A DNA stretch of 64,000 nt, taken from contig CAAGLY010000002.1 in assembly GCA_900770925.1 (NCBI GenBank), positions 18,942 through 82,941 on the forward strand. The letters run 5' to 3'. Below, piece by piece: positions 2,133-63,980 of this stretch. The stretch comes from Bacilli bacterium (lineage in GTDB: Bacteria; Bacillota_I; Bacilli_A; RFN20; CAG-288). The position numbers were made by a program, and so were the translations under genes. The notes below the pieces were generated by a model. That model searched no databases. It was given only the letters and a program-made list of their open reading frames with translations, and was not told where the DNA came from. How positions within the stretch are numbered: position 1 is the stretch's first letter; every line of letters begins with the position of its first letter.

Positions 2133-2161
2133 TTGTAATCGCTTTCAATTCCATTTATAAT
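2133..2161 (+). promoter_or_regulatory. sigma-A-type promoter (TTGTAA, 17-nt spacer, TATAAT) for the HPr-like gene
   Basis: TTGTAA is at 2133-2138 and TATAAT at 2156-2161, with a 17-nt spacer. An RBS (AAGGAAAAG) lies 5 nt before the ATG at 2183. Confidence 0.45.
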
Positions 2162-2182
2162 CTAATTGCAAGGAAAAGAATT

Positions 2183-2449
2183 ATGGCTACATTCAAAATC
2201 AAAGTTACCAACATTGGCGGACTTACTTCACGTTCCAGCGCAGAATTAGTCGAAGAGGCTAATCATCATAAATGCGAAGTCATCAGGAAATTAGATGATG
2301 GCGAAGAATGCGATCTCAAATCCATCAGGAATGTCTTCGGTGTCCATCCGATTCAGCAGGGCGAAGTTCTCACTATCGTCTGCACTGGTGACGACGAAGA
2401 AGCTGCTGTCGAAGGCTTCCAGCGTTTAGCTGAACAGTACAGCTTCTAA
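2183..2449 (+). CDS. HPr-like phosphocarrier paralog (Crh-like) with Thr where the catalytic His15 should be and Ser47 retained
   Basis: The 88-aa protein aligns with HPr and Crh over GLxxRPA, KSIMGxM and IxxxGxDEE. The site reads GGLTSRSS instead of GIHARPA. The LKSIRNV serine is conserved. Confidence 0.65.
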   Translation: MATFKIKVTNIGGLTSRSSAELVEEANHHKCEVIRKLDDGEECDLKSIRNVFGVHPIQQGEVLTIVCTGDDEEAAVEGFQRLAEQYSF

Positions 2450-2778
2450 TCCAACCGACTTCCATTGGCCAAGTGGAATAGATGATTCGGTGCCGATCAG
2501 GGAAGGGATGACTATACGTTCCGTGTTGGGATGAGATGTGAAGTTCTGGGATTATACGATCCGGGATGTATTGTGCCGTTACGATATGGGATGAGATGTA
2601 AGCTGAGAAGAGAAGTGCCGTTACGAGCTGACGAGACGTTATGTTGACTAGATGGAGACGAAGTCTGGATTAACCCCTACTTTTGTTTCGACGGAGGAAT
2701 ATGGGAAGTACCCTTTCGATTCCGGTGACGCATGGGTTGGCGCGCTAACCTCACATTCATCTAATAGGTAAAAAATAA

Positions 2779-2802
2779 GGGAGCCGACGGGCTCCCTTTT
2801 TT
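2779..2802. terminator. Rho-independent terminator, bidirectional
   Basis: The hairpin is GGGAGCC-GACG-GGCTCCC, followed by TTTTTT on the + strand and preceded by an A-run. It terminates the HPr-like transcript 330 nt after the stop, and also the minus-strand two-gene unit ending at 2809. Confidence 0.75.
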
Positions 2803-2808
2803 CTGTGA

Positions 2809-3177
2809 TTAGAACAGCGGATTGAATAAATCCGTAATGGTCTTGTAGTTTTTCTGCTTAAAGGGGAACCTCCCCTTTAAAGCATAGTAGGTGTTATCCG
2901 AGTACCTGATCGTAAGGAAGAACTTCAGGGAGAAATCAGCTCTGTTATCTTCATAGAGGAGCGCACAGAAATCATCATCGGTGCTGTTTTTGACAGAATT
3001 GATGACTTCCCTTACTTTATCCTTCTCTTTGTCGGTTAACGGACGTGTCCCCTTAGAATTAGTCAGTATCCATTTGTCTTTGCCCGTATCGATTTCCAGA
3101 GACTGAGTCTTCTCGATGGATTCGGGGTCTCTTTTCCAGAAGCGGATGAATTTAATCGCCATTGGTCCTCTCCTCAT
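2809..3177 (-). CDS. hypothetical protein. The start is probably the internal Met of MAIKF at about 3162.
   Basis: The ORF overlaps the upstream zinc-ribbon gene by about 26 nt and is followed by the strong terminator. No domain was recognised. Confidence 0.4.
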   Translation of the reverse strand: MRRGPMAIKFIRFWKRDPESIEKTQSLEIDTGKDKWILTNSKGTRPLTDKEKDKVREVINSVKNSTDDDFCALLYEDNRADFSLKFFLTIRYSDNTYYALKGRFPFKQKNYKTITDLFNPLF

Positions 3178-3697
3178 CTGTCTCGAAGAACTGTTCGAAG
3201 ATCATTGGCAGGATTTTGAAATAAGGCGGGAAACGGTTTGTTCCCTTGTAGACTTTCTCAGGAAGGATAGAAAGAGAGAAGCCGAGCTTGATTTCGTACT
3301 TTGCGTTTCCGCTAGGAAGGAGAAGCCCTAATAATTCCGGTTCCCAGTCTAAGATATAGAGCTTGCGGAAAAGAAGGGTCTTCAGTTCCGGAAAGATTGG
3401 AGCGATGTTCCTTGGTTCGAAAGGCTGCCTCCTACCGTTTTTATCAATTGTGGAAGCGGATAGCATGACTTTCTCATTGCTTTCCTTATGGATCTTGATC
3501 TGTCTAGTGAAACCTTCTTTGTCTGTCTTCGAATAGAAAAAATCAGAAAGATTCTCTTCGTACTGTCCGATGGTTGTGCCATCATCGACTCCGAAGTCTT
3601 TATGGCAATCTAGACATTCAAAGCCATGGGTTCCTAATTTCTTATCCCTGAACGGCTGAGTGTTGTCTTTTCCGCAGCGTGGGCAGATTTCGTTCAT
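3152..3697 (-). CDS. hypothetical protein with an N-terminal Cys4 zinc ribbon
   Basis: The N-terminus reads CPRCGKD...CLDCHKD, with two CxxC pairs. There is no other recognisable domain. The start overlaps the rsuA-like stop by 4 nt. Confidence 0.45.
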   Translation of the reverse strand: MNEICPRCGKDNTQPFRDKKLGTHGFECLDCHKDFGVDDGTTIGQYEENLSDFFYSKTDKEGFTRQIKIHKESNEKVMLSASTIDKNGRRQPFEPRNIAPIFPELKTLLFRKLYILDWEPELLGLLLPSGNAKYEIKLGFSLSILPEKVYKGTNRFPPYFKILPMIFEQFFETDEERTNGD

Positions 3698-7872: not shown

Positions 7873-8113
7873 TTGATTTTCCTCCGTTTGTCTAGGATGG
7901 TAAATCTCTAGACACGTACCCTTATCTTATCATTATTTTTAGAAAAAGGTAGAAAAAGTTTAATATTTTCTTTGAGCGCATTTCATAGTGAATTGAAAAC
8001 CGAACTGTTGTTTTCCTCGGGAAATAGGATTGCAGGATTGCCATTGCTGTTTGGGCTAATTAATGGGGTATAGAACAGAATGGTACTATTGGTCTTGCCT
8101 GTAAGCGTTTTCT

Positions 8114-22749: not shown

Positions 22750-22827
22750 AAAAAGAGTATTGACCTATGTTTTTCACAATTTCATGTATGTAACCGGTTT
22801 CCTATAATGGAAATGGTGAGGTATGCC

Positions 22828-23919
22828 ATGGAAAATTATGAAAAGCTGACCATCGGAAAAAGATATCTGACAGGAAGGATTAATCTTGGCCTTGTTTTTC
22901 TTTTTACTCTTTTCCTCTATTTAGTGGGAGGAATCGGGATTGGAAAGAAAATGGTGGGCTTTGATCAGGAAGTCCTACACCAGAAGAAACTTACCGGCGA
23001 AATCTATAATCATAGGTATGATACCCACCTTTATTGCAAAGATAAAGATGGTAATGCAAGGGAAGTGGATGAAATTTTCAAAAACTATGTTCAGAACCAG
23101 CTTTCTGGGGAAATGAAAGATGCAGATGGCAGTTATCTTGATCCGCTTGCTTATTATTACATCAGCTTTGATAAATCTAGGTCAGTCAATGAATTCAATC
23201 ATCAGATTCTTCTTGTTGGAAACGAAGATTCGTTCTATGAAGCAAAGGATAGGGAAAGCCTAGGATATCTCAAACTTGAAGTGAAGGAAAAGCTGTCTTC
23301 TTATTTTGATGGAAAGATGACGGATTCGAACAAGAAAACATATAATTCATTTTCTGATTTTTTCTCGAAAGCCTGGTTCAATGCCGTAGAGAAAGAAAAG
23401 AAAGGACCAATCATCACTTCATTAGTGAATCAGTTCAATCAATCGGTCCTACTGCAGGGATTGGGTTTAGGAATACCGGCACTCTGCTCTTATCTGATTG
23501 TAAGGATTCTCTTTGAATTTATCCTGCCTCTTTCCTGCAAGCAGCGGACAAGGGGGAACCTTCTTCTTCATTCTGACATCCGAAGAAAAAGCGGCAATTT
23601 TCGCCCAGCTTGGTGGCAGACACTGATTCGGTTTCTTGTCAATCTTATTCTTGATTGCTATATTCCTTTCTATGTTCTTGCCCTTGTTACTGGTGTAGAG
23701 AACGCATGCAAGGTTCCTTTGCTGAAGATTGGTTCTTTCTCTCTCCCGCTAGCAACCGTAGGATTTACCCTTACGATTTTCGCTTTAATCAATCTTTTTG
23801 TCCTCTCTTTTAGTAAATCCCATCAATCTTATGCTGATCTGATAACGGCGACTTATCACGCAAAGCGTGTCGAAAATCAAACGGAGGAAAATACAGATGG
23901 CAGACGTAAAGCTCATTAA
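22828..23919 (+). CDS. hypothetical polytopic membrane protein
   Basis: There are several TM helices. An RBS (GGTGAGG) precedes the ATG at 22828. The ATGs at 22807 and 22813 sit inside or next to a TATAAT at 22801-22806. The 3' end overlaps the following ATPase gene. Confidence 0.4.
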   Translation: MENYEKLTIGKRYLTGRINLGLVFLFTLFLYLVGGIGIGKKMVGFDQEVLHQKKLTGEIYNHRYDTHLYCKDKDGNAREVDEIFKNYVQNQLSGEMKDADGSYLDPLAYYYISFDKSRSVNEFNHQILLVGNEDSFYEAKDRESLGYLKLEVKEKLSSYFDGKMTDSNKKTYNSFSDFFSKAWFNAVEKEKKGPIITSLVNQFNQSVLLQGLGLGIPALCSYLIVRILFEFILPLSCKQRTRGNLLLHSDIRRKSGNFRPAWWQTLIRFLVNLILDCYIPFYVLALVTGVENACKVPLLKIGSFSLPLATVGFTLTIFALINLFVLSFSKSHQSYADLITATYHAKRVENQTEENTDGRRKAH

Positions 23920-25435
23920 TGTCAATAAGATCTACGATAATAAGGTGCAGGCTGTCCATGACTTCAACTTGGATATTAAAGACAAGGAGTTCACGGTCTT
24001 TGTCGGTCCGTCCGGATGCGGAAAATCAACAACACTTCGAAGGATTGCCGGACTTGAGGAAATCACGACGGGTGAATTATATATTGACGGTGTTTTCTGT
24101 AATTATGTACCTCCAAAAGACAGAGGGATTGCAATGGTTTTCCAAACCTATGCCCTTTATCCCCATAGGACTGTCTTTGATAACAGGGCTTTTTCTCTGA
24201 AAATCAAGAAATTTCCTTTCCCGGTTTTTGAAGAGGAAGATAAAAACCGTCTTAAGGAAATCAACAGAAAGCTTGATGGGCTCTATGATGTTTTAGATAA
24301 AAAACTTCAGAAAAAGAAAAAACTGGAAGATATTAAGAACGAATATAACGAATATGTCCGTTTCGAAAAAAGCAAGAACAAGGAACCTAATCCATCCAAG
24401 AGGGATAAGTATGAGAAAAAACTTGCGGGCTTTTCCCAATTAGTTGAGGAATGCAATCACCTTCAGGATCAGATTGATCTTGTTCAGGATGAATTCAAAC
24501 AGGCTAAGACCAATGCAAAAATCTGCACCGCCATTGATAAGAAAAGAATCGCTCAGCTTTCCAAAGAGATTAGCAAGCTGAAAAAGAACAATAGCCCAGA
24601 GGATATTGTTTCCAGGAAAGAAGAACAGTTAAAAGAAGCACAGACGATTCCTAGTCCGGTATATAAACTCAAACATAGGAACAAAAATGAAATCAAGGAA
24701 CGGATTCATCAGGCCGCAAAGATCCTTGATATCGAGAATTATCTTGGACGAAAACCACGGGAACTTTCTGGCGGTCAGCGGCAACGTGTTGCCTTAGGAC
24801 GTGCAATTGTCCGCAATGCTAAAGTCTTCCTGATGGATGAACCTCTTTCCAATCTTGATGCAAAGCTCCGTGTTTCCAGGCGAAGCGAAATCATTAAGCT
24901 GCATAAGAAAATAAATGCGACGACGATTTATGTCACCCATGATCAGACAGAAGCAAGGACAAGGGCAGATAAAATCGTGGTCAGGAAAGACGGCTATATC
25001 CAGCAGGTCGGAACTCCAAAGGAAATCTATTCTCATCCGGTGAACAAATTTGTTGCCGGTTTTATCGGAGCTCCTGCAAGGAATTTTATCGAAGTTCTTT
25101 ATCAGGATGGAAAAATCATCCATGATGGTGGTGAAGAACAAGTTGATGCAGAAAGGATAGAAGCTTTAAAGGCTTATAACGGCAAGAAAGTCATCTTAGG
25201 TATTCGTCCGGAAGATATTCAGATTTCTTCGGACAAAGGAAGCTATCCGATCTCTATCGATGTTTCAGAACTTCTTGGCAGTGAACTTCTGATTCATTTC
25301 TCTTTCTGTGGAGCAAATCTGACAGCAAAGTGTGAAGCGGACTCCATTTCCCCCGAAGAGAAGACAGCATGGATAACTTTCAAACAGAATAAAATCCATT
25401 TCTTCGATAAAGAAACGGAAAAGACAATTCTTTAG
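23897..25435 (+). CDS. sugar ABC transporter ATP-binding protein (MsmK/MalK-like) with an insertion of about 150 aa in the helical subdomain
   Basis: The RBS is GGAGG, followed by ATG at 23897. Motifs present are Walker A (GPSGCGKST), the Q-loop, the LSGGQRQRVALGRA signature, Walker B (FLMDEPLSNLD) and a C-terminal MalK-like regulatory domain. Confidence 0.8.
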   Translation: MADVKLINVNKIYDNKVQAVHDFNLDIKDKEFTVFVGPSGCGKSTTLRRIAGLEEITTGELYIDGVFCNYVPPKDRGIAMVFQTYALYPHRTVFDNRAFSLKIKKFPFPVFEEEDKNRLKEINRKLDGLYDVLDKKLQKKKKLEDIKNEYNEYVRFEKSKNKEPNPSKRDKYEKKLAGFSQLVEECNHLQDQIDLVQDEFKQAKTNAKICTAIDKKRIAQLSKEISKLKKNNSPEDIVSRKEEQLKEAQTIPSPVYKLKHRNKNEIKERIHQAAKILDIENYLGRKPRELSGGQRQRVALGRAIVRNAKVFLMDEPLSNLDAKLRVSRRSEIIKLHKKINATTIYVTHDQTEARTRADKIVVRKDGYIQQVGTPKEIYSHPVNKFVAGFIGAPARNFIEVLYQDGKIIHDGGEEQVDAERIEALKAYNGKKVILGIRPEDIQISSDKGSYPISIDVSELLGSELLIHFSFCGANLTAKCEADSISPEEKTAWITFKQNKIHFFDKETEKTIL

Positions 25436-29113: not shown

Positions 29114-29149
29114 TCTATCTATTTCTTTAATATAAGGAGCGCCGAACAA

Positions 29150-30268
29150 TGAAAGAACTTTCTGATCTGAATCGTTTACACGATACTCTTTCGGAACAGG
29201 TCCTTTCTTTGCAAGGCTGCCTTTGACTTCCCTAGACTGGAAGAAGAGAAGGCAGCCTTAAGCAAGCAAAGCGAGGATCCGTCGTTCTGGAAAAATCCAA
29301 GCTTAGCTGCCAGTGTTAACCGTAAATTAGCCGATATCGAAAATAAAATCAATTCGATTGAATCCTTTAAGTCCCGCCTTTCCTCGATTCAGGAGTCTTT
29401 AGATTTCCTGAAAGAGGATAGGGATAAGGATATCTTTGAGGATGCTGATCAGTCCCTGAATACCCTGAATAAGGACTTTGACGTTTTTTCTAAGACAATC
29501 TTCTATTCTGGCCCTTATGATGAGGCAAACGCTATTCTTGAATTTCATCCCGGAGCGGGCGGAACAGAAGCTCATGATTGGGCACAGAGGCTTTTAAGAA
29601 GGTATGAACGTTTCTGTGAATCGAATGGCTATCATTATAAGATTGTCGATAGGATTGAGGGAGAAGAGGCCGGTATTTCCTCTGCTACAAGGGTTGTGGA
29701 AGGAAAGAGGGCGTATGGAAACCTTCGCTCTGAGAACGGAGTCCATCGCTTAGTCCGTATCTCGCCTTTTGATGCTTCCGGTTCCCGGCATACTTCTTTT
29801 GCTTCCGTTTCCGTCATTCCGGAAATCGATGATTCCATCGATATCGAAATCCGTCCGGAAGATTTAAGAATCGATACCTATCATTCTTCCGGTGCAGGCG
29901 GACAGAATGTCAATAAGACGGAGTCTGCTGTCCGTATTACCCATCTTCCTACCGGCATTGTCGTATCCTGCCAGATTGAGCGGGATCAGCTTGCCAATAA
30001 GGAAACCTGTAGGGAAATGCTCCGCTCGAAGCTGTTCCAGATCGAACTGAAGAAAAAACAGGATGAACTGAATAAGATTTCTGGACAGAAGAAGGATATT
30101 TCCTTCTCTAGCCAGATCCGTTCGTATGTCTTCTGCCCCTATACCTTAGTTAAAGATCATCGGGATGACTATTCGGAAGTCTCTGTCCAGTCCGTCATGG
30201 ACGGAAAGATAAACGGATTCATCGATGCTTATCTGAAATGGGATTTCAGGAGAAATCATCAGAAATGA
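29150..30268 (+). CDS. prfB: peptide chain release factor 2, carrying the programmed +1 frameshift site CTT TGA C at 29221-29227. The 5' frame is anomalous (see finding).
   Basis: The post-shift frame encodes DFPRLEEEKAALSKQSEDPSFW...SGAGGQNVNKTESAVRITHLPTGIVV, giving the GGQ motif and an SPF-type region. The shift site and the upstream AAGG match the classical RF2 autoregulatory site. Synteny with secA is conserved. Confidence 0.85.
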
Positions 30269-51260: not shown

Positions 51261-52913
51261 TTAATCGATGTCTAACGAACCGGCCGAAATCAGCTTTTCG
51301 CTGGTTTTATCGAAGAGAAGGATATCGTTGCCCTTGAAGCCGACTTTGATGTGCTCATTGACCTTGAAGTCATTGGCACCGAAGATGACACCGGTAACGA
51401 TGAATCCGTTGATGTTCCTCTTGATTGTGGTTTCCCTACCACTAGGCCTGGCGGAGTAAACGACGGCATCCCTGCCTTTGCCTTCTCCTTCGGCAAGAGT
51501 AATGAATTCCGGACGCACACCTAAGATATAGTCTTCATCGGTCGGATCATGCTCTTCCTTACGTTCATAGAGACCATCAATCTTAGTGATTTTGTAGTTG
51601 AAGGTGGTATCCTTATTGAGCTTCTCAACGTAGCCTTTTTCCTTCTTCCTAGCCTCTTTCTTTGCCTTAGCATCAGCAATTTCCTGATTACGCATAGAGA
51701 CTTCTTCTGCTAAGTCAATTGGTTCATTCGGCTTGAAGACGGCTGTAATGGAATCAAAGAAGCGGCATTCGATGGTTCCGTCTTCTCTCTGTTTGACCTT
51801 GGTTTCCCTTAAGGTCATGGCCGGGTTACCGACGAAGTCGGCAACGAAGAGATTGTTCGGACGGCTATAGACCTTTAACGGAGCATCATACTGCTGGAGT
51901 GAGCCATTATTGATTAAGCAGATACGGCTAGCAAGGGTCCTTGCCTCTAACTGATCGTGGGTAACGTAGACAAAGGTTGCACCAGTCTCGACATGCAGAC
52001 GTTTTAACTCAGAGCGCCTTTCTAGACGAAGCTTAGCATCAAGGTTAGAGAGAGGTTCATCCATGAAGATGACCTTCGGTTCCGGTGCCAAGGTACGGGC
52101 GATAGCGACACGTTGCTGCTGACCGCCGGAGAGTTCGTTCGGATAACGTTTCCTGAATTCTTCGACTTTGACAATACGGGCAACATGGCGGATAGCCTGT
52201 TCGCACTCTTCTTTGGAAAGACCGCGCTTTTTCCTGAGAATTACTCCATTCTCTGCTAATTCTCCTCTTTCGTTGAGGACAATGCCTTTGGCTTTATATC
52301 CTTCGGCAATGGTCTTCCTCTTTTCCTGGCATTCTTTGATCTTAGCCTCAGCCTTTGCTTTCCTATCTCCCTGTTCAAGGTGCAGAGCATAGATTTCTTT
52401 AGCGGTATACCTAGAGATAGTGAAGTTATCGATTAACTTGATTAAGGCAACATCCTCATTGATCTTGCCTTTCTTATCGACCGAGTCTTTGACAAAGTAG
52501 ACAACACGGTCTGCTTTTTCACTTAGGATTCTGACGATCTGACTGCGGGTAAGATAATCGAAGTCCGTTTCGGGCCTTTCCTTCTTGATGTTCTTTAAAC
52601 CGAACTGGATGTTCTGATAGACAGTCCTGTTCGGCCAGAGTGCATAGTTCTGGAAAAGGAAGCCGACACGGCGCTTATTCGGAGGAACATTGATTCCCTT
52701 TTTAGAGGAAAAGACGATTTCGTCACCGATTGTGATTTCACCGGAAGTCGGAGTTTCAAGACCGGCGATCCTGCGTAACAGGGTAGTCTTTCCGCATCCG
52801 GAAGGACCAAGGAGAACAACGAAGGATTCATTCGGAATATCCCTAGTGATATGGTCGCTTCCGTAGAAATCCTTCCAGCGTTTGACAACATCTGTAATTT
52901 TAATTTCAGGCAT
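51261..52913 (-). CDS. ABC transporter ATP-binding protein (MalK/PotA-like) with an insertion of about 180 aa
   Basis: The motifs Walker A (GPSGCGKTT), the Q-loop, the LSGGQQQRVAIARTL signature and Walker B (IFMDEPLSNLD) are present. The insertion is K/E-rich. Confidence 0.8.
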   Translation of the reverse strand: MPEIKITDVVKRWKDFYGSDHITRDIPNESFVVLLGPSGCGKTTLLRRIAGLETPTSGEITIGDEIVFSSKKGINVPPNKRRVGFLFQNYALWPNRTVYQNIQFGLKNIKKERPETDFDYLTRSQIVRILSEKADRVVYFVKDSVDKKGKINEDVALIKLIDNFTISRYTAKEIYALHLEQGDRKAKAEAKIKECQEKRKTIAEGYKAKGIVLNERGELAENGVILRKKRGLSKEECEQAIRHVARIVKVEEFRKRYPNELSGGQQQRVAIARTLAPEPKVIFMDEPLSNLDAKLRLERRSELKRLHVETGATFVYVTHDQLEARTLASRICLINNGSLQQYDAPLKVYSRPNNLFVADFVGNPAMTLRETKVKQREDGTIECRFFDSITAVFKPNEPIDLAEEVSMRNQEIADAKAKKEARKKEKGYVEKLNKDTTFNYKITKIDGLYERKEEHDPTDEDYILGVRPEFITLAEGEGKGRDAVVYSARPSGRETTIKRNINGFIVTGVIFGANDFKVNEHIKVGFKGNDILLFDKTSEKLISAGSLDID

Positions 52914-58329: not shown

Positions 58330-58671
58330 CGTTGTTTCCTATCTCTTCTATTATCGTTTTTTCTATGGAAAAAGGAAAGATAGGAAAATGAGAAAATTAT
58401 TCATTGCTGTTTTTTCCTTTTGATCTGGGCACAAAAAACAGAAGCATAAAAAGTCCGGCTTTTACCCGCTTAGAATACCTAGTCAAGAAAAAAATAAAAA
58501 AATATATGGGGATAATAAAAAAGCCATTTCATTTGACTAAAAATACGATGGCCACGATAAAAATCACTATTACTTGGTAGCGCTTACCATTTTTAAAAAT
58601 AGAAATGCCGTCCGGATTTTCGATTTCCTGACCTTATAATGTTCCTGTCATCGCGAGATGACTTTATCGTT

Positions 58672-58742
58672 TCTATTCGTATAATTACCCAGATTGGTGG
58701 GAAGTCTCTACGCTGTGGACCGCAAATCCAGCACTACGAATA
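58672..58742 (+). promoter_or_regulatory. purine riboswitch aptamer, guanine class (C at the specificity position)
   Basis: P1 is UUCGUA/UACGAA. J1-2 is UAUAAU. P2/L2 is CCCA-GAUUGG-UGGG. J2-3 is AAGUCUCUAC. L3 is ACCGCAAAU. J3-1 is ACUA. These match the xpt-type consensus. It lies about 95 nt upstream of the BMP nucleoside ABC operon, and a possible TATAAT sits at about 58635. Confidence 0.75.
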
Positions 58743-58835
58743 AAAAACAATCAATCATCTTTTTTCATTTTTTATTTAAAAAAGAGATTTTCATCCGTTC
58801 TTGGTAATCAAAGGCCAAAAAGGAGAAAATTCAAA

Positions 58836-60179
58836 ATGAAAAAAGGTCTTAAGTTTGCTGGTCTGGCTCTTTTATCTGTTTTAGCAAGGACGGGATGCAC
58901 AAAAGGCGGAGATTCTACTGCTACTGCTGGAAGCGAGAAACCTGCAAGCACGCTTAAAGTCGGCTTAATCTGTGTCGGTGATGAGACTGAGACCTACTCC
59001 AAGGCCCACATTGATGGAATCAAGGCAGCTGCTGCTAAGCTTGGAGCTACTGTCATTTATAAAAACTCTGTTCCAGAAGGAACCCAGGTTGTTGATGCCT
59101 GCACGGAATTAAAAGAAGCTGGCGCACAGCTTATTTTCACCAACTCCTATGGCCATCAGGATTATGCCTGTGCTTTTGCTAAAGATAATCTGGATCTTAC
59201 CATTGTCGCTGATACTGGTGATTATGCTGCTATCTCTGGACTTTCCAATCTCAAGAATGCTTTCACCAACATCTATGAAGCACGTTATGTCTCCGGTGTT
59301 GTCGCTGGAAGGAAACTGAAAGAGCTCAATGCTGCTGGAAAGATTGAAGCTTCTAGCAAGGATGCTGCTGGAAACATCAAGATCGGCTACGTTGGTGCCT
59401 ATAACTATGCTGAAGTCGTTTCTGGATACACTGCTTTCTATCTTGGTGTCAAGGAAGGCTTCGAAGCAGATAATGTTGTCAGGGAAGTCAAATATACCAA
59501 CTCTTGGTATGATCATGATGCTGAAAATACTGCTGCCAAGTATTTAAGGTCCCAAGGCTGCGTCATCATTGGCCAGCATGCTGATTCCACTGGTGCACCG
59601 GAAGCTGTCGAAGAAGAACACAATAAAGGCAAGGAAGTCTATTCTGTTGGATACAACATTGATAGGCTTTCCAAGGCTCCGACCGCTGCATTAACCTCTT
59701 CCACGAATAACTGGGAAAAGTATTATGAGTATGCCATTGGACAGTTCAAGAAAGGCGAATCCATTGCTGTTGACTGGGCAAAAGGATATGCCGATGATGC
59801 TGTTGGTATCACTACTCTTGGTCCGAATGTTGCTGAAGGAACCAAGGCTAAGGTTGATTCCCTTGTCGCTGAAATCAAAGCTGGCACCAAGCATGTCTTT
59901 GATACCTCTAAGTTCACCATCACCGGTGCTAACAAGGACAACATCAACAATGCCGGTGCCACTATTGATGAAGCAACCGGACATGTCACTAAGAACAGGG
60001 TTGACTTCTCTTACAAAGATTGGACCCAGGGCGGAAAGGTCATCTATCAGGGTGAGACTGTCGACACTGTCAAGAAGAGCGGCGATGTCAGCTACGTCGA
60101 AGAATCTGTCAAACGTTCTGCTCCTTACTTTGCTCTTCGTATTGATGGTATTAAGGAAACTGCCGTTGATGCCAAGTAG
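58836..60179 (+). CDS. BMP-family (PnrA/TmpC/Med-like) nucleoside ABC transporter substrate-binding lipoprotein
   Basis: The signal peptide carries a lipobox (LARTGC). The region VGLICVGDETETYSKAHIDG...AQLIFTNSYGHQ is typical of BMP/PnrA. The RBS is AAAGGAGAAAA. Confidence 0.85.
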   Translation: MKKGLKFAGLALLSVLARTGCTKGGDSTATAGSEKPASTLKVGLICVGDETETYSKAHIDGIKAAAAKLGATVIYKNSVPEGTQVVDACTELKEAGAQLIFTNSYGHQDYACAFAKDNLDLTIVADTGDYAAISGLSNLKNAFTNIYEARYVSGVVAGRKLKELNAAGKIEASSKDAAGNIKIGYVGAYNYAEVVSGYTAFYLGVKEGFEADNVVREVKYTNSWYDHDAENTAAKYLRSQGCVIIGQHADSTGAPEAVEEEHNKGKEVYSVGYNIDRLSKAPTAALTSSTNNWEKYYEYAIGQFKKGESIAVDWAKGYADDAVGITTLGPNVAEGTKAKVDSLVAEIKAGTKHVFDTSKFTITGANKDNINNAGATIDEATGHVTKNRVDFSYKDWTQGGKVIYQGETVDTVKKSGDVSYVEESVKRSAPYFALRIDGIKETAVDAK

Positions 60180-60231
60180 TCTTTCCACGAAGGAATTCTA
60201 AAAATCACAGGGAGGGCTATACCCTCCCTGT

Positions 60232-61800
60232 TTGCCGTTTATGAAAGGTATGAAAAATATGGGTGAAACAGCAATTCAGAGGATTTCAATCAGCAAACGC
60301 TTCGGTAAGACAATCGCAAACGAAAACGTGAATCTAAGTATTGAGAAAGGCGAAATCCTTTCTTTATTAGGCGAAAACGGCTCTGGAAAGACAACCTTAA
60401 GGAACATGCTTTCCGGAATCTATTATCCTGACTCGGGTGAAATTTATGTCGATGGAAAGAGAGTGGTGATTTCTTCTCCGAAGGATGCTTTTGATCTTGG
60501 TATTGGAAGGGTTCATCAGCATTTTAAGCTGATCGATGTTTTTACTGCTAGCGAAAACATTGTCCTTGGCTTGAAGAACGAGCCTTTCTTCCTCAGCCGT
60601 AGAAAAATCAATAAGAAAGTCAAAGAGATTTCAAATCGATATGGATTTGATCTTGATCCCAAGAAAAAAGTCTATGAAAGGTCTGTCTCTGAAAAACAGA
60701 TTGTTGAAATCAGGAAACTTCTTTATCGTGGTGTTCATACTTTGATTCTTGACGAGCCGACCGCTGTTCTTACCCCTCAAGAAACAGAACGTTTATTCCA
60801 TATTCTTCGTGAAAGGAAGAAGGATGGAAAAACGATTATCATTATTACCCATAAGCTGAATGAAGTTCTTGAACTATCGGATCGGGTTGCTATTCTACGC
60901 AAGGGAAAACTGGTGGATAGGATTAAGACGAGTGAAGCGAACGAGAGCATCTTAACCGATGCAATGGTCGGCGAGCATGTCAAGCTTGAAATCGAGCGGG
61001 ACGAGATTTCAGCTGAGAAAAAAGAAAAAGTTCTTGAGATTTCTCATCTCTCCTGCACTGCTGAGGATGGAATCCGTTGCTTGAAAGATGTTTCCTTCTC
61101 CGCTTATTCTGGTGAGATTCTTGGTATTGCAGGTGTTTCCGGATCTGGACAGAAAGTCTTACTCGAAGCCATCTGCGGACTTCAACATGCCGATAATGGA
61201 AGCAAGATTCTCTTCACAGACCATCAAAACATTACAGAAGATTTGATTGGAAGGACTCCGAAACAGATTAAGCACAAAGGTGTCCGTTTGGCCTTTGTTC
61301 CAGAAGATCGTTTGGGTATGGGTCTTGTTGGTGATTTCGGAAGGACTGGTAATAGGAGGTTACGCTCCTATGAAGATGGAAAGTCTCCGTTTATTAATTT
61401 CCGGAATCCGAAACATACTGCTGCGGAAGTAAAAGAAGGCCTCAATGTTCTCACTCCTTCATTGGAAACTCCTGTCCGTACTCTCTCTGGCGGAAATGTT
61501 CAAAAGGTTCTTGTCGGACGTGAGATTTCTTCTTCGCCTCGTCTCCTTCTCACTGCATATGCTACCCGTGGACTTGATATTAACACCTCTTATGCAATCT
61601 ACAACATTCTGAATGAACAGAAGAAGAAAGGTGCTGCTGTTATCTATGTCGGTGAAGACCTGGATGTTCTTCTTGCCTTATGCGATCGAATCCTTGTCTT
61701 ATGCGATGGGCAATGCACTGGCATTGTCTCCGCAAGAGACACGGATAAGAGGACGATTGGAAAGAGGATGAGCAGGAATAAGGAGAAGAACAATGACTAA
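60232..61800 (+). CDS. nucleoside/sugar ABC transporter ATP-binding protein with duplicated ATPase domains (NupA/RnsA-like)
   Basis: The N-terminal domain has Walker A (GENGSGKTT) and a signature plus Walker B (LILDEPT). The second domain has GVSGSGQ and LSGGNVQKV. Confidence 0.85.
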   Translation: MPFMKGMKNMGETAIQRISISKRFGKTIANENVNLSIEKGEILSLLGENGSGKTTLRNMLSGIYYPDSGEIYVDGKRVVISSPKDAFDLGIGRVHQHFKLIDVFTASENIVLGLKNEPFFLSRRKINKKVKEISNRYGFDLDPKKKVYERSVSEKQIVEIRKLLYRGVHTLILDEPTAVLTPQETERLFHILRERKKDGKTIIIITHKLNEVLELSDRVAILRKGKLVDRIKTSEANESILTDAMVGEHVKLEIERDEISAEKKEKVLEISHLSCTAEDGIRCLKDVSFSAYSGEILGIAGVSGSGQKVLLEAICGLQHADNGSKILFTDHQNITEDLIGRTPKQIKHKGVRLAFVPEDRLGMGLVGDFGRTGNRRLRSYEDGKSPFINFRNPKHTAAEVKEGLNVLTPSLETPVRTLSGGNVQKVLVGREISSSPRLLLTAYATRGLDINTSYAIYNILNEQKKKGAAVIYVGEDLDVLLALCDRILVLCDGQCTGIVSARDTDKRTIGKRMSRNKEKNND

Positions 61801-63001
61801 AACAAAAAGACCAAAGATTATCCGAGTTGCTAAACGGAGCATTGCTTCTCCGTTTGATAAGATCAAAGCTTATGTTGTCCCTTTGCTTTTCGCCTTAGTT
61901 CTTTCTGTCCTTTTCTTATGGCTGGTAGGACGAAAGAATCCGTTCACAGCTGTTAAGTATATTTTTGAAGGAACCTTCTTCATTACGGATTCTGGCTCCT
62001 TATCTCCGTCTCGTCTCCTTGCTTTTGCTAAGAATGCCATTGTCCTTCTCTGGATTGCACTTGCTTTAGCACCATGCTACAAAATGAGATACTGGAACAT
62101 CGGTGGACAAGGACAAGTTCTCATTGGAGCACTTCTTACGGCTTGCTGCAGGATTTATCTTCCACAGACAAGGCCGAACGCTCTTGCTGTCATGATAGCC
62201 GCTGTTGTTGCTGCCATTGGCGGAGCTATCTGGTCTTATATTCCTGCAATCTTCAAAGCCAAGTGGAATACGAATGAAACCCTCTTCACTCTGAGGAGGA
62301 ACTATCTTGCCATCCTTCTTGTTGAATTATGCACGAATATCTGGCGTGGAAGTAAATCCGCACTAGGGCAAATCAATGTCTCGAATCGCTTTGGATGGTT
62401 CTACCAGATTCCTCATACGGCAATCAAGAACCAGTTCCTTAACAGCAATGTGTTCTTCCCGTTGATTTTTGTAGCTGTTCTTGTTGCTGTTAGGTTTGTC
62501 TATATTAAATATACGAAGCATGGCTATGAAAGGACTGTTGTCGGCGAATCTCTTTCCACGGCTAGATACACTGGTATCAATGTCCGTCATGTCATTCGTC
62601 GCACCGCTGCTTTAAGCGGATTGCTTTGCGGTTTGATCGGATTCTTATCTGTTTCGAACTTTGATCATTCTATCTCCACCTTCTCTGATTTTGGTTATGG
62701 TTTCACGGCTGTTATTGTCTGCTGGCTTAGTAACTTCAATCCTTTCGCTAGGATTGGTTACTCGTCACTTCTTGTCTTTTTGGAAAGAGGGGCAAAGAAC
62801 CTTAGCGATAGTCAGTATGCAGCACCATATCTGAACGAATACTCTACGCAGTTTGTCATTTTCGTCATTATTCTTGCATTCCTTTCTGCTACCTTCTTCC
62901 TCCGCTATCAAGTAACTCTTGATTTGCCAGGAAAGCAGAAACGAAGGAAAGCGAAACTGACAAAAGGATTATTAAATCCAGCAAAGAAGGAGGCTAGGTA
63001 A
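61793..63001 (+). CDS. ABC transporter permease (BPD_transp_2 family, NupB/RnsC-like)
   Basis: It is a polytopic membrane protein that overlaps the ATPase stop. This gene order is typical of BMP systems. Confidence 0.8.
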   Translation: MTKTKRPKIIRVAKRSIASPFDKIKAYVVPLLFALVLSVLFLWLVGRKNPFTAVKYIFEGTFFITDSGSLSPSRLLAFAKNAIVLLWIALALAPCYKMRYWNIGGQGQVLIGALLTACCRIYLPQTRPNALAVMIAAVVAAIGGAIWSYIPAIFKAKWNTNETLFTLRRNYLAILLVELCTNIWRGSKSALGQINVSNRFGWFYQIPHTAIKNQFLNSNVFFPLIFVAVLVAVRFVYIKYTKHGYERTVVGESLSTARYTGINVRHVIRRTAALSGLLCGLIGFLSVSNFDHSISTFSDFGYGFTAVIVCWLSNFNPFARIGYSSLLVFLERGAKNLSDSQYAAPYLNEYSTQFVIFVIILAFLSATFFLRYQVTLDLPGKQKRRKAKLTKGLLNPAKKEAR

Positions 63002-63002
63002 T

Positions 63003-63980
63003 ATGGAAACGTTCATCTCCTGGTTCACGATTGCAATTGTCTACGGAACCATCCTTTCTCTTTCTGCCTGTGGGGAAACCATCAATGAAAAAGCAGGACA
63101 TCTGAATCTTGGTATTCCTGGAATTAGGTATTTAAGTGGCGTTGCTTCTTTTGCACTCACCAGTAGGTATGAAGGAACTGGAAACCCTAACGGATTTGTG
63201 GTTGCTAGGATTGCAATTCTTTCTTCCTTTGCTGTTGGTGCAGTTCTTGGTTTTATCTACTCTCTCTTCGCTGTAACCTTCAAGTGCAATCAGAACGTTC
63301 TTGGCCTAGCAATCGCTTCTTTCGGCGTCGGCTTCGGAAAGTTCATCTCTGTCAGGCTGGGAAATACTCCGAAACTCACAAAGGCCAATCAAGTCTTTAA
63401 CGCGGGCATTCCTTTCTTTAAGGACTTAGGCGTGGCCGGAAAGCTTTTCTTCAACTACGGGTTCAGGACTTATATCACATTATTGATTCTGATTCTGGCA
63501 AGGCTTTTCTTCCGCAAAACAAAAATCGGTCTTAATCTTCGTGCTATTGGCGAATCTCCAGCTACATCCGATGCCGTTGGCTTGAATGTTACAAAATACA
63601 AATATATTGCAACTAGGATCGGGTGCGGACTAGCAGGACTCGGCGGAAGGATCTATGTCAGGCAGTTCTCTACCGGTTCTTGGTCTACGAATAACAACAT
63701 TGAAGCCTTAGGATGGCTTGCTGTTGCCCTCGTTATCTTCGCTTCTTGGAAGCCGGTTCATCTTATCTGGGGTGCTCCTTTATTCGGATTCCTCTTCTGG
63801 GCTTGGACTTATCTTCCTTCTCTTCTTAAAATCTCGGGCTTCAAAGGCAGGAACGAGCTTCTGGAAAGGCTTCCGTATCTTGTTACCATCCTTATTCTTG
63901 TCTTTAATTCGAGGCGCAAAAAGAAAGAAAACCAGCCGCCGGAATCGCTTGGTTTATCCTACTTCCGGGAGGACAGATAG
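63003..63980 (+). CDS. ABC transporter permease (BPD_transp_2 family, NupC/RnsD-like)
   Basis: It is the second permease of the BMP-type system, with 8-10 TM segments. Confidence 0.8.
   Translation: METFISWFTIAIVYGTILSLSACGETINEKAGHLNLGIPGIRYLSGVASFALTSRYEGTGNPNGFVVARIAILSSFAVGAVLGFIYSLFAVTFKCNQNVLGLAIASFGVGFGKFISVRLGNTPKLTKANQVFNAGIPFFKDLGVAGKLFFNYGFRTYITLLILILARLFFRKTKIGLNLRAIGESPATSDAVGLNVTKYKYIATRIGCGLAGLGGRIYVRQFSTGSWSTNNNIEALGWLAVALVIFASWKPVHLIWGAPLFGFLFWAWTYLPSLLKISGFKGRNELLERLPYLVTILILVFNSRRKKKENQPPESLGLSYFREDR

Follow-up and report, generated by a model that had tools for sequence, protein, structure and literature searches.

Can a protein of the HPr family that has lost the histidine used in phosphotransfer still serve the cell, and if so, in what capacity? 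This question is raised by an open reading frame (ORF) at positions 2183..2449 (+) of a 64-kb stretch of contig CAAGLY010000002.1 (referred to below, at its full length, as the window), which encodes an HPr-like protein of 88 amino acids (aa), MATFKIKVTNIGGLTSRSSAELVEEANHHKCEVIRKLDDGEECDLKSIRNVFGVHPIQQGEVLTIVCTGDDEEAAVEGFQRLAEQYSF. Catabolite repression in Firmicutes is usually seen as an offshoot of the phosphotransferase system (PTS), HPr being shared by transport, through His15, and by regulation, through Ser46, and Crh is usually seen as an extra that is specific to Bacillales. What is new here is a conserved 14-nucleotide (nt) palindrome, apparently an operator of the catabolite-responsive element (cre) type, on the promoter of the HPr-like gene itself. 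We assume, with a probability of roughly 55%, that a Crh-type mechanism has been reached independently in this lineage: Ser47 of the protein would be phosphorylated by HPr kinase/phosphorylase (HprK), a CcpA-type repressor would act on cre, and the gene would thus be subject to negative autoregulation.

The protein is a member of the HPr family. It matches the Pfam profile PTS-HPr (PF00381) with 52.8 bits (gathering cut-off 23) and an E-value of 4.3e-14 over residues 3–84, covering 79 of 81 profile positions. At the same time it misses every curated cut-off of NCBIfam: the score is 43.4 bits for TIGR01003 (cut-off 47.9) and 36.7 bits for NF010354, the Crh equivalog (cut-off 123). The best sequence match in the PDB is Crh of B. 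subtilis (1zvv, E=2e-5), with the HPrs of E. coli and other bacteria nearly equal. In the phmmer alignment with this Crh structure, GGLTSRSS faces TGLQARPA, which places Thr15 (codon ACT, 2225–2227) in the column of His15/Gln15, and LKSIRNV faces AKSIMGL, which makes Ser47 (codon TCC, 2321–2323) the equivalent of Ser46. The same register results from a profile alignment of 150 library representatives, in which GLTSRSS shares its columns with canonical GLHARPA. The AlphaFold2 model, for which the family alignment served as input, has the β-α-β-β-α-β-α topology of HPr (pLDDT 88.1, pTM 0.77), and Foldseek superimposes it on HPr and Crh structures with TM scores of 0.81–0.88 and root-mean-square deviations of 1.3–2.0 Å; the matches include HPr in the complexes with CcpA (2fep, 1rzr) and with HprK/P (1kkl). 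The phosphorylatable His15 of the GxHARPA motif is absent, GLTSRSS having Thr15 in its place, and a protein with no phosphorylatable His cannot carry phosphate in the PTS: neither phosphotransfer from Enzyme I (EI) nor transfer to Enzyme II (EII) is predicted to be possible. The initial annotation of this DNA had described an 88-aa product of HPr fold with Thr at the place of His15, a conserved HprK-target Ser and no part in PTS phosphotransfer, and in all of this it was borne out by the profile search, the pairwise and profile alignments and the structural model.

Conservation of the protein shows which of its parts matter. A word-indexed search yields 67 clusters at 90% identity, almost all with a length of 88 aa; those that carry names are called 'HPr family phosphocarrier protein' and belong to 'Bacilli bacterium' metagenome-assembled genomes (MAGs). 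When one genome per GTDB species was scanned, the gene turned out to be present in 47 species, with Thr15 in 46 of them and Ser in one; the 47 include outliers at 43–49% identity that read GLTPRLAAELVEEAN. Thr15, which the initial annotation had called unusual for a Crh, is thus no oddity of this one gene but the state of the entire clade. Residues G13, L14, R17, S18, A20–H28, C43–I48 and N50–F52 are invariant in the family alignment, and T15 is found in at least 90% of its sequences. HMMER, run exhaustively on 1.84 billion representatives, returned 1451 matches, just 24 of which reach E≤1e-10. Most proteins at the top ranks lack the His and have T, S, N, G or I as residue 15 together with an invariant Ser, and HPrs with His15 make up the majority below about rank 25. 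A search seeded with members of this wider clade gave 489 proteins. Among the 111 newly listed matches that were aligned, position 15 is T in 96 cases, N in 8, S in 6 and G in one, and Ser46 is present in every one of them (111/111). Across all family and wider-clade members, Ser47 within (C/A)DLKSI(M/R)NV is invariant. A position 15 relaxed to small polar residues, together with a fixed Ser46 helix, is the pattern expected if only regulation survives. Judging by this pattern, selection has preserved the regulatory face of the protein, namely Arg17, helix 1 (AELVEEAN) and the Ser46 helix (CDLKSIxNVF). A decaying pseudogene or functionless relic is ruled out by about 35 near-invariant positions across the 47 species.

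The kind of regulation is suggested by the DNA in front of the gene. A sigma-70-type promoter lies at 2133..2161 (+), with the −35 hexamer TTGTAA (2133–2138), a 17-nt spacer and the −10 hexamer TATAAT (2156–2161); it scores 10/12 in a consensus scan, and its architecture is kept upstream of the orthologue in most species. It is followed by the Shine-Dalgarno-like AAGGAAAAG at 2170..2178 (+), read from the sequence 5–13 nt before the ATG, and an AAGGA/AGGAA motif is conserved in the orthologous upstream regions. The 14-nt palindrome TGTAATCGCTTTCA (2134..2147), which was identified by consensus match as cre-type (LacI/CcpA-family), overlaps the −35 hexamer and part of the spacer. The scans used TGWNANCGNTNWCA, which we take to be the cre consensus, and the palindrome is its sole perfect match in 64 kb, the chance expectation being 0.28 per window. 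In 30 of 48 sequences the orthologue has a perfect match 44–52 nt before its start, and a box with no more than one mismatch stands at the same offset in 41 of the 42 core-clade sequences. The central CG of the box is invariant and positions T1, G2, A4, A5, C7, G8, T10, T11 and C13 are essentially so; the clade consensus, TGTAATCGCTTACA, is a 12/14 palindrome. In total, 860 kb contain 51 boxes with at most one mismatch, and 41 of these are located at this promoter. In blastn comparisons across species just the last ~50 nt before the start codon can be aligned within the intergenic DNA, and the box stays with the gene where the upstream neighbour changes.

With its invariant central CG and its TGTAA-N4-TTACA geometry the palindrome has the features of LacI-family operators, and repression is predicted from its location over the −35 hexamer. 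Two other readings of the palindrome were rejected. The half-site spacing and the central CG do not fit the Rex-type TTGTGAA-N4-TTCACAA, nor does the palindrome fit the CRP-type TGTGA-N6-TCACA. The conserved operator therefore points to catabolite-type repression of the HPr-like gene, possibly in the form of negative autoregulation. Two weaker cre-like sites occur in intergenic DNA elsewhere in the window. One of them, TGTAAGCGTTTTCT at 8100..8113 (+), which is also present in a related locus (L006, at 19952), lies upstream of the gene of a YesM-type sensor kinase that heads a cluster of sugar ATP-binding cassette (ABC) transporter and glycoside-hydrolase genes. The other, at 22789–22802, is upstream of the RDD/MsmK genes. 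It is possible that the same regulator also acts at these two sites, which would be a hint of a regulon.

The following mechanism can be proposed. At high glycolytic flux HprK would phosphorylate Ser47, and the P-Ser form would bind a CcpA-type repressor of the LacI family. The repressor complex would then occupy cre operators, one of which is on the promoter of the HPr-like gene, so that the gene of the co-repressor would itself be under catabolite-type repression and would regulate itself negatively. Unphosphorylated His15 contacts CcpA, and Crh works with CcpA without His15 (PMC3526391). The initial annotation had suggested that the protein, phosphorylated on Ser, may assist a CcpA-like regulator as its co-effector. 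Such a role seems plausible, and the conserved cre-type operator on the gene's own promoter lends it indirect support.

The alternative that survives best, although we hold it to be rather unlikely, is that the protein is a regulator with main targets other than a CcpA-like repressor, such as an ATPase of the MsmK/MalK type (inducer exclusion) or metabolic enzymes, which it would bind and modulate either as P-Ser protein or without modification. The cre-type box would in that case represent just control of expression by some LacI-family regulator. Inducer exclusion by P-Ser-HPr has been reported for lactic acid bacteria, and Crh interacts with MgsA, HPr with GapA, and E. coli HPr with glycogen phosphorylase. 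All of these partner interactions belong to other organisms. The window itself offers candidates for such a role: sugar uptake appears to depend on ABC transporters, and an MsmK-like ATPase with a MalK OB/TOBE tail (23867–25435) is encoded along with several transporter operons. The HPr-like gene, in contrast, is unlinked to transporters, its neighbours being housekeeping genes (TrpRS-like, GalU-like, pseudouridine synthase; alr in the wider clade). The fold matches include HPr in complexes outside the PTS, with glycogen phosphorylase (9s8k), Rsd (4xwj) and FruR (7x7h). The scarcity of cre-like sites outside the gene's own promoter also suits a regulator of this kind, and the surface of helices 1 and 2, which is more conserved than in ordinary HPrs, would fit any fixed partner. 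The assumption of other targets is compatible with the CcpA route, to which they could be added.

A second alternative, quite improbable in our opinion, is the paralog picture of the initial annotation: a His15 HPr, EI and PTS permeases would be encoded elsewhere in the genome, and the present gene would be a Crh-like paralog working beside HPr. Its assessment depends on the lineage. The gene is carried by Ca. Enterosoma/UBA7642 (L024, L026, L028), by several UBA and UMGS MAGs labelled 'Mollicutes' or 'Bacillales', and by Clostridium sp. CAG:568; the proteins of the window appear in NCBI as 'Mollicutes bacterium' MAG proteins and are found on hundreds of metagenomic contigs. Ca. Enterosoma corresponds to the GTDB genus UBA7642 of the order RFN20 and family CAG-288 (PMC8035907). 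The ptsI gene (K08483) is present in 0% of the genomes of 'gut lineage 2' (RFN20), in 2% of those of RF39 and in 100% of those of Erysipelotrichales, and EII genes are found in about 0–5% of RFN20 genomes (PMC7301438, supplement 2 for ptsI). According to the authors, PTS-less lineages probably import sugars via ABC transporters (PMC7301438).

The local sequence agrees with these figures. The sequence searched for partners comprised the window with 10 kb past each of its ends (~82 kb of genome) and 47 related loci (~0.9 Mb), the latter being essentially one syntenic 20-kb region per related genome. No EI or EII partners were found in the window, its flanks or the related loci. In the Pfam annotation of all sizeable ORFs of the window there is no PTS component, no HprK and no LacI-family gene, and a six-frame scan with hidden Markov models found no second HPr-family ORF in the 64 kb. 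Genes of carbohydrate metabolism in the window include those of a YesM/YesN-type two-component system, ABC transporters, a trehalase-like enzyme, GH3 and GH31 hydrolases, the MsmK-like ATPase, nagA/nagB and phosphoglucomutases, and uptake is of the ABC type throughout. The behaviour of the HPr-like gene across the 47 species is that of a syntenic orthologue in single copy. On the side of a paralog, the sequence covered amounts to ~82 kb of the genome, absence calls based on MAGs are fallible, and canonical His15 HPrs (e.g., P0201) are among the nearest relatives outside the family. The reported absence of ptsI from RFN20 and the single HPr ORF of the window nevertheless make it more likely that the protein is the sole HPr of the lineage than that it is a paralog. 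Ureaplasma and Bartonella are known cases of lineages that have ptsH but no ptsI (PMC2405797).

As to the genetic code of this lineage, UGA is a stop codon in the window, and the GC content is 40–46%. The prfB gene for release factor RF-2 (29149–30268) has a programmed +1 frameshift, with CTT TGA C at 29221–29227 and the frame continuing to 30268, which fits the use of UGA as a stop codon in a lineage that bears the label 'Mollicutes'.

A third alternative, that Thr15 is itself phosphorylated, e.g., by a Hanks-type Ser/Thr kinase, in a new two-site switch replacing the antagonism of His15~P and Ser46-P, is highly improbable: Thr does dominate (46/47 species; 96/111 in the wider clade) and the Ser alternative is also phosphorylatable, but the wider clade also has Asn, Gly and Ile as residue 15, so the hydroxyl group is not required, and neither a locus-linked kinase gene nor, in literature searches, an experimental precedent was found.

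Several observations also weigh against the Crh-type mechanism proposed above. Homologues of HprK, CcpA or other LacI-family proteins, and EI were not found in the window, its 10-kb flanks and the 47 related loci, which, as one syntenic region, provide weak evidence of absence. Likewise, tblastn with HprK, CcpA, HPr and Crh of B. subtilis and EI of E. coli gave no match to HprK, CcpA or EI in the window or the loci. The 10 boxes located elsewhere than at this promoter compare with 7.5 expected from shuffled sequence, which is near chance, and no broad CcpA regulon is evident in the DNA scanned. The cre-type box is absent from the wider-clade promoters examined. Codon 49 (2327–2329), directly after the Ser-Ile pair of the regulatory helix, encodes Arg in the window's genus (the window together with L005–L007) and Met elsewhere in the family, so that LKSIRNVFGV in this genus stands against LKSIMNVFAL in the other members. 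In canonical HPr the Met that follows the Ser is part of the hydrophobic patch touching HprK, CcpA and EI, and with Arg in its place the protein may be recognised differently by HprK or CcpA. The placement of the window in RFN20 used in the analysis comes from synteny and homology with RFN20 MAGs. Finally, the figure for the absence of the PTS from RFN20 is drawn from 21 incomplete MAGs (PMC7301438).

Other searches for the partners gave the following results. When a protein database was searched for HprK, with a probe 100% identical to the B. subtilis enzyme, the 120 matches listed were all from Bacillus. In the supplementary tables consulted from two RFN20 papers there are no entries for hprK, ccpA, COG1493 or COG1609, but there are frequencies for ptsI and EII. 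The contexts of four wider-clade members contain galU, alr, PFOR and PEPCK and no HprK, LacI or PTS genes. In two wider-clade loci (L058 and L059) an inverted repeat, TTGTGAAAAAAA...TTTTCACAA, is located upstream of the gene where the cre-type box would be.

How does the protein relate to the known His-less relative of HPr? With Crh of B. subtilis and other Bacillales it shares the HPr fold, a length of ~85–88 aa, the lack of His15 and the retention of Arg17 and Ser46, and both would be excluded from phosphotransfer and suited as Ser-phosphorylated co-effectors of CcpA. The differences are no less clear. Residue 15 is Thr clade-wide here, whereas it is Gln in Crh; there is probably no functional HPr alongside; the gene's own promoter carries a cre-type operator; and the neighbours are TrpRS, GalU and pseudouridine synthase genes, whereas crh of Bacillus belongs to a yvc/whiA-type operon. 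Sequence identity is 28% with Crh and 29% with HPr of B. subtilis. According to a rough neighbour-joining tree, the clade with T, S, N or G at position 15 forms one cluster and Crh is found in another, beside other Q15 and T15 proteins. The separate tree cluster, the scores below the cut-offs (36.7 of 123 bits for NF010354) and the different gene context indicate that the protein is not an orthologue of Bacillus Crh, and the term 'Crh-like' used by the initial annotation is not supported in this respect. As far as sequence comparison can tell, the loss of His15 is independent of that in Crh, and the two proteins are analogous, not orthologous. Literature searches found no direct precedent for an HPr with Thr15 or without His.

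Canonical HPr of Firmicutes (PtsH), whose two phosphorylation sites are His15 and Ser46, shares with the protein its Pfam family, fold, Arg17 and Ser46 helix (LKSIM in most members of the present family), and HPrs with GLHARPA are the nearest relatives outside the family. The present protein differs from it in lacking His15, in missing the cut-off of TIGR01003, in having no adjoining ptsI, in contrast to the ptsHI operon usual for HPr, and in the near invariance of helix 1 and the Ser helix. It also has additional residues, His28-His29, Cys31 and Cys43. In the core clade these four positions are invariant or nearly so, with Tyr for His29 in some sequences (2264–2275 and 2309–2311 in the window). 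Canonical HPr does not have this set, and most of the wider clade is without Cys43. By position, the residues fall at the end of helix 1 and in the β2/β3 hairpin, so that a metal or redox site made up of them is conceivable.

Two further comparisons concern the gene and its operator. The orphan ptsH genes of Ureaplasma and Bartonella are kept in lineages without EI (PMC2405797), as the present gene probably is, and such retention implies a purely regulatory role. The operator resembles the cre/CcpA operators of Firmicutes in being a 14-nt palindrome with a central CG, in its perfect fit to the consensus and in its overlap with the −35 hexamer. It differs from them in that it is found on the co-effector's own gene and is almost the sole strong site in the DNA scanned; its binder, moreover, could be any member of the LacI family. 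We know of no cre-type operator on the promoters of the orphan ptsH genes of Ureaplasma or Bartonella.

The gene is alone on its strand. On one side it is flanked by divergent TrpRS-like or GalU-like genes, and on the convergent side by small genes of unknown function, an RsuA-type pseudouridine synthase gene and a gene for a membrane protein. A functional operon was rejected as an explanation of this arrangement: the neighbours are strongly syntenic across the 47 species, but they are housekeeping genes on the opposite strand. Two small genes at 2809–3697 (-) converge on the HPr-like gene and encode proteins of 122 and 181 aa, the latter with a zinc-ribbon-like CxxC...CxxC N-terminus; neither protein has a Pfam match, and both genes are syntenic in most of the 47 species. 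In three wider-clade lineages (L056–L061) the alanine racemase gene (alr) lies directly 3' of the HPr-like gene on the same strand, with a GalU-like gene divergent.

The gene was described by the initial annotation as monocistronic, with a strong promoter of its own and a long 3' region, and the arrangement found agrees with this: the promoter is TTGTAA-17-TATAAT, and ~330 nt (2450..2776, +) separate the stop codon from the terminator, as delimited by repeats and by alignment with the two closest species (L005 and L006). The terminator (2777..2804) is intrinsic and bidirectional, with a GC-rich stem of 9 bp followed by a T-run, and is shared with the convergent gene at 2809–3177 (-). Its hairpin (2777–2798) is the only terminator-like one and is kept in both relatives. 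Within the 3' region, a hairpin block (2457–2495) and a block of ~100 nt (2664–2762) are ~95% identical in the three species, and the variable, repeat-bearing middle (~2496–2663) diverges from L005 and L006. A possible ORF of 15 codons at 2701 is broken by a frameshifting indel in L005, and all of its changes in L006 are non-synonymous, which speaks against a protein-coding block. The conserved block 2664–2762 is probably an RNA element or a small RNA, judging by this pattern of conservation. The 3' region has no match to an Rfam family or to tRNA/tmRNA and no global folding signal (whole-region z = −1.05); it holds no remnant of the gene of cluster 12, which occupies the same spot in other species. 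The conserved block is undetectable beyond the closest relatives. The spacer downstream of the gene ranges from 22 to 858 nt depending on the species, which shows that a long 3' region is not shared by the family at large.

Other elements were noticed in the window. A purine riboswitch (RF00167, 51.6 bits, 58657–58756) is located upstream of the operon for a nucleoside ABC transporter of the Bmp/PnrA type (58836–63980). Two ABC-transporter ATPases are unusually long, at 23867–25435 (522 aa) and 51261–52913 (550 aa). In both, an insertion that clearly exceeds 100 aa interrupts the ABC_tran domain. The match to the Pfam profile falls into two stretches in one of them, and in the other it extends over residues 22–288 for a profile of 137 positions.

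Taken at its widest, the finding would describe a wall-less, PTS-less gut lineage with a stripped-down module, in which a His-less HPr serves as a Ser-phosphorylated read-out and its own gene is the principal cre target; this picture is tentative, and we regard it as somewhat doubtful. If true, it would amount to a self-limiting, stand-alone sensor circuit. The HprK-HPr(Ser)-CcpA axis would then have proved able to survive the loss of the PTS that gave rise to it. It could also follow that proteins of the Crh type have at least two independent origins, paralogy in Bacillales and, in the present lineage, degeneration of its sole ptsH. In an order-level group of abundant uncultured gut bacteria, the PTS has apparently been lost and the HPr gene is under strong purifying selection. 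This raises the questions of whether the HprK/CcpA axis is useful without a PTS and how sugar preference may be established in organisms that import sugars by ABC transporters only. The label 'HPr family phosphocarrier protein' is misleading in metabolic reconstructions of RFN20 MAGs. The operator, for its part, provides a concrete DNA site, a predicted feedback loop and a motif with which the regulon of RFN20 may be mapped.

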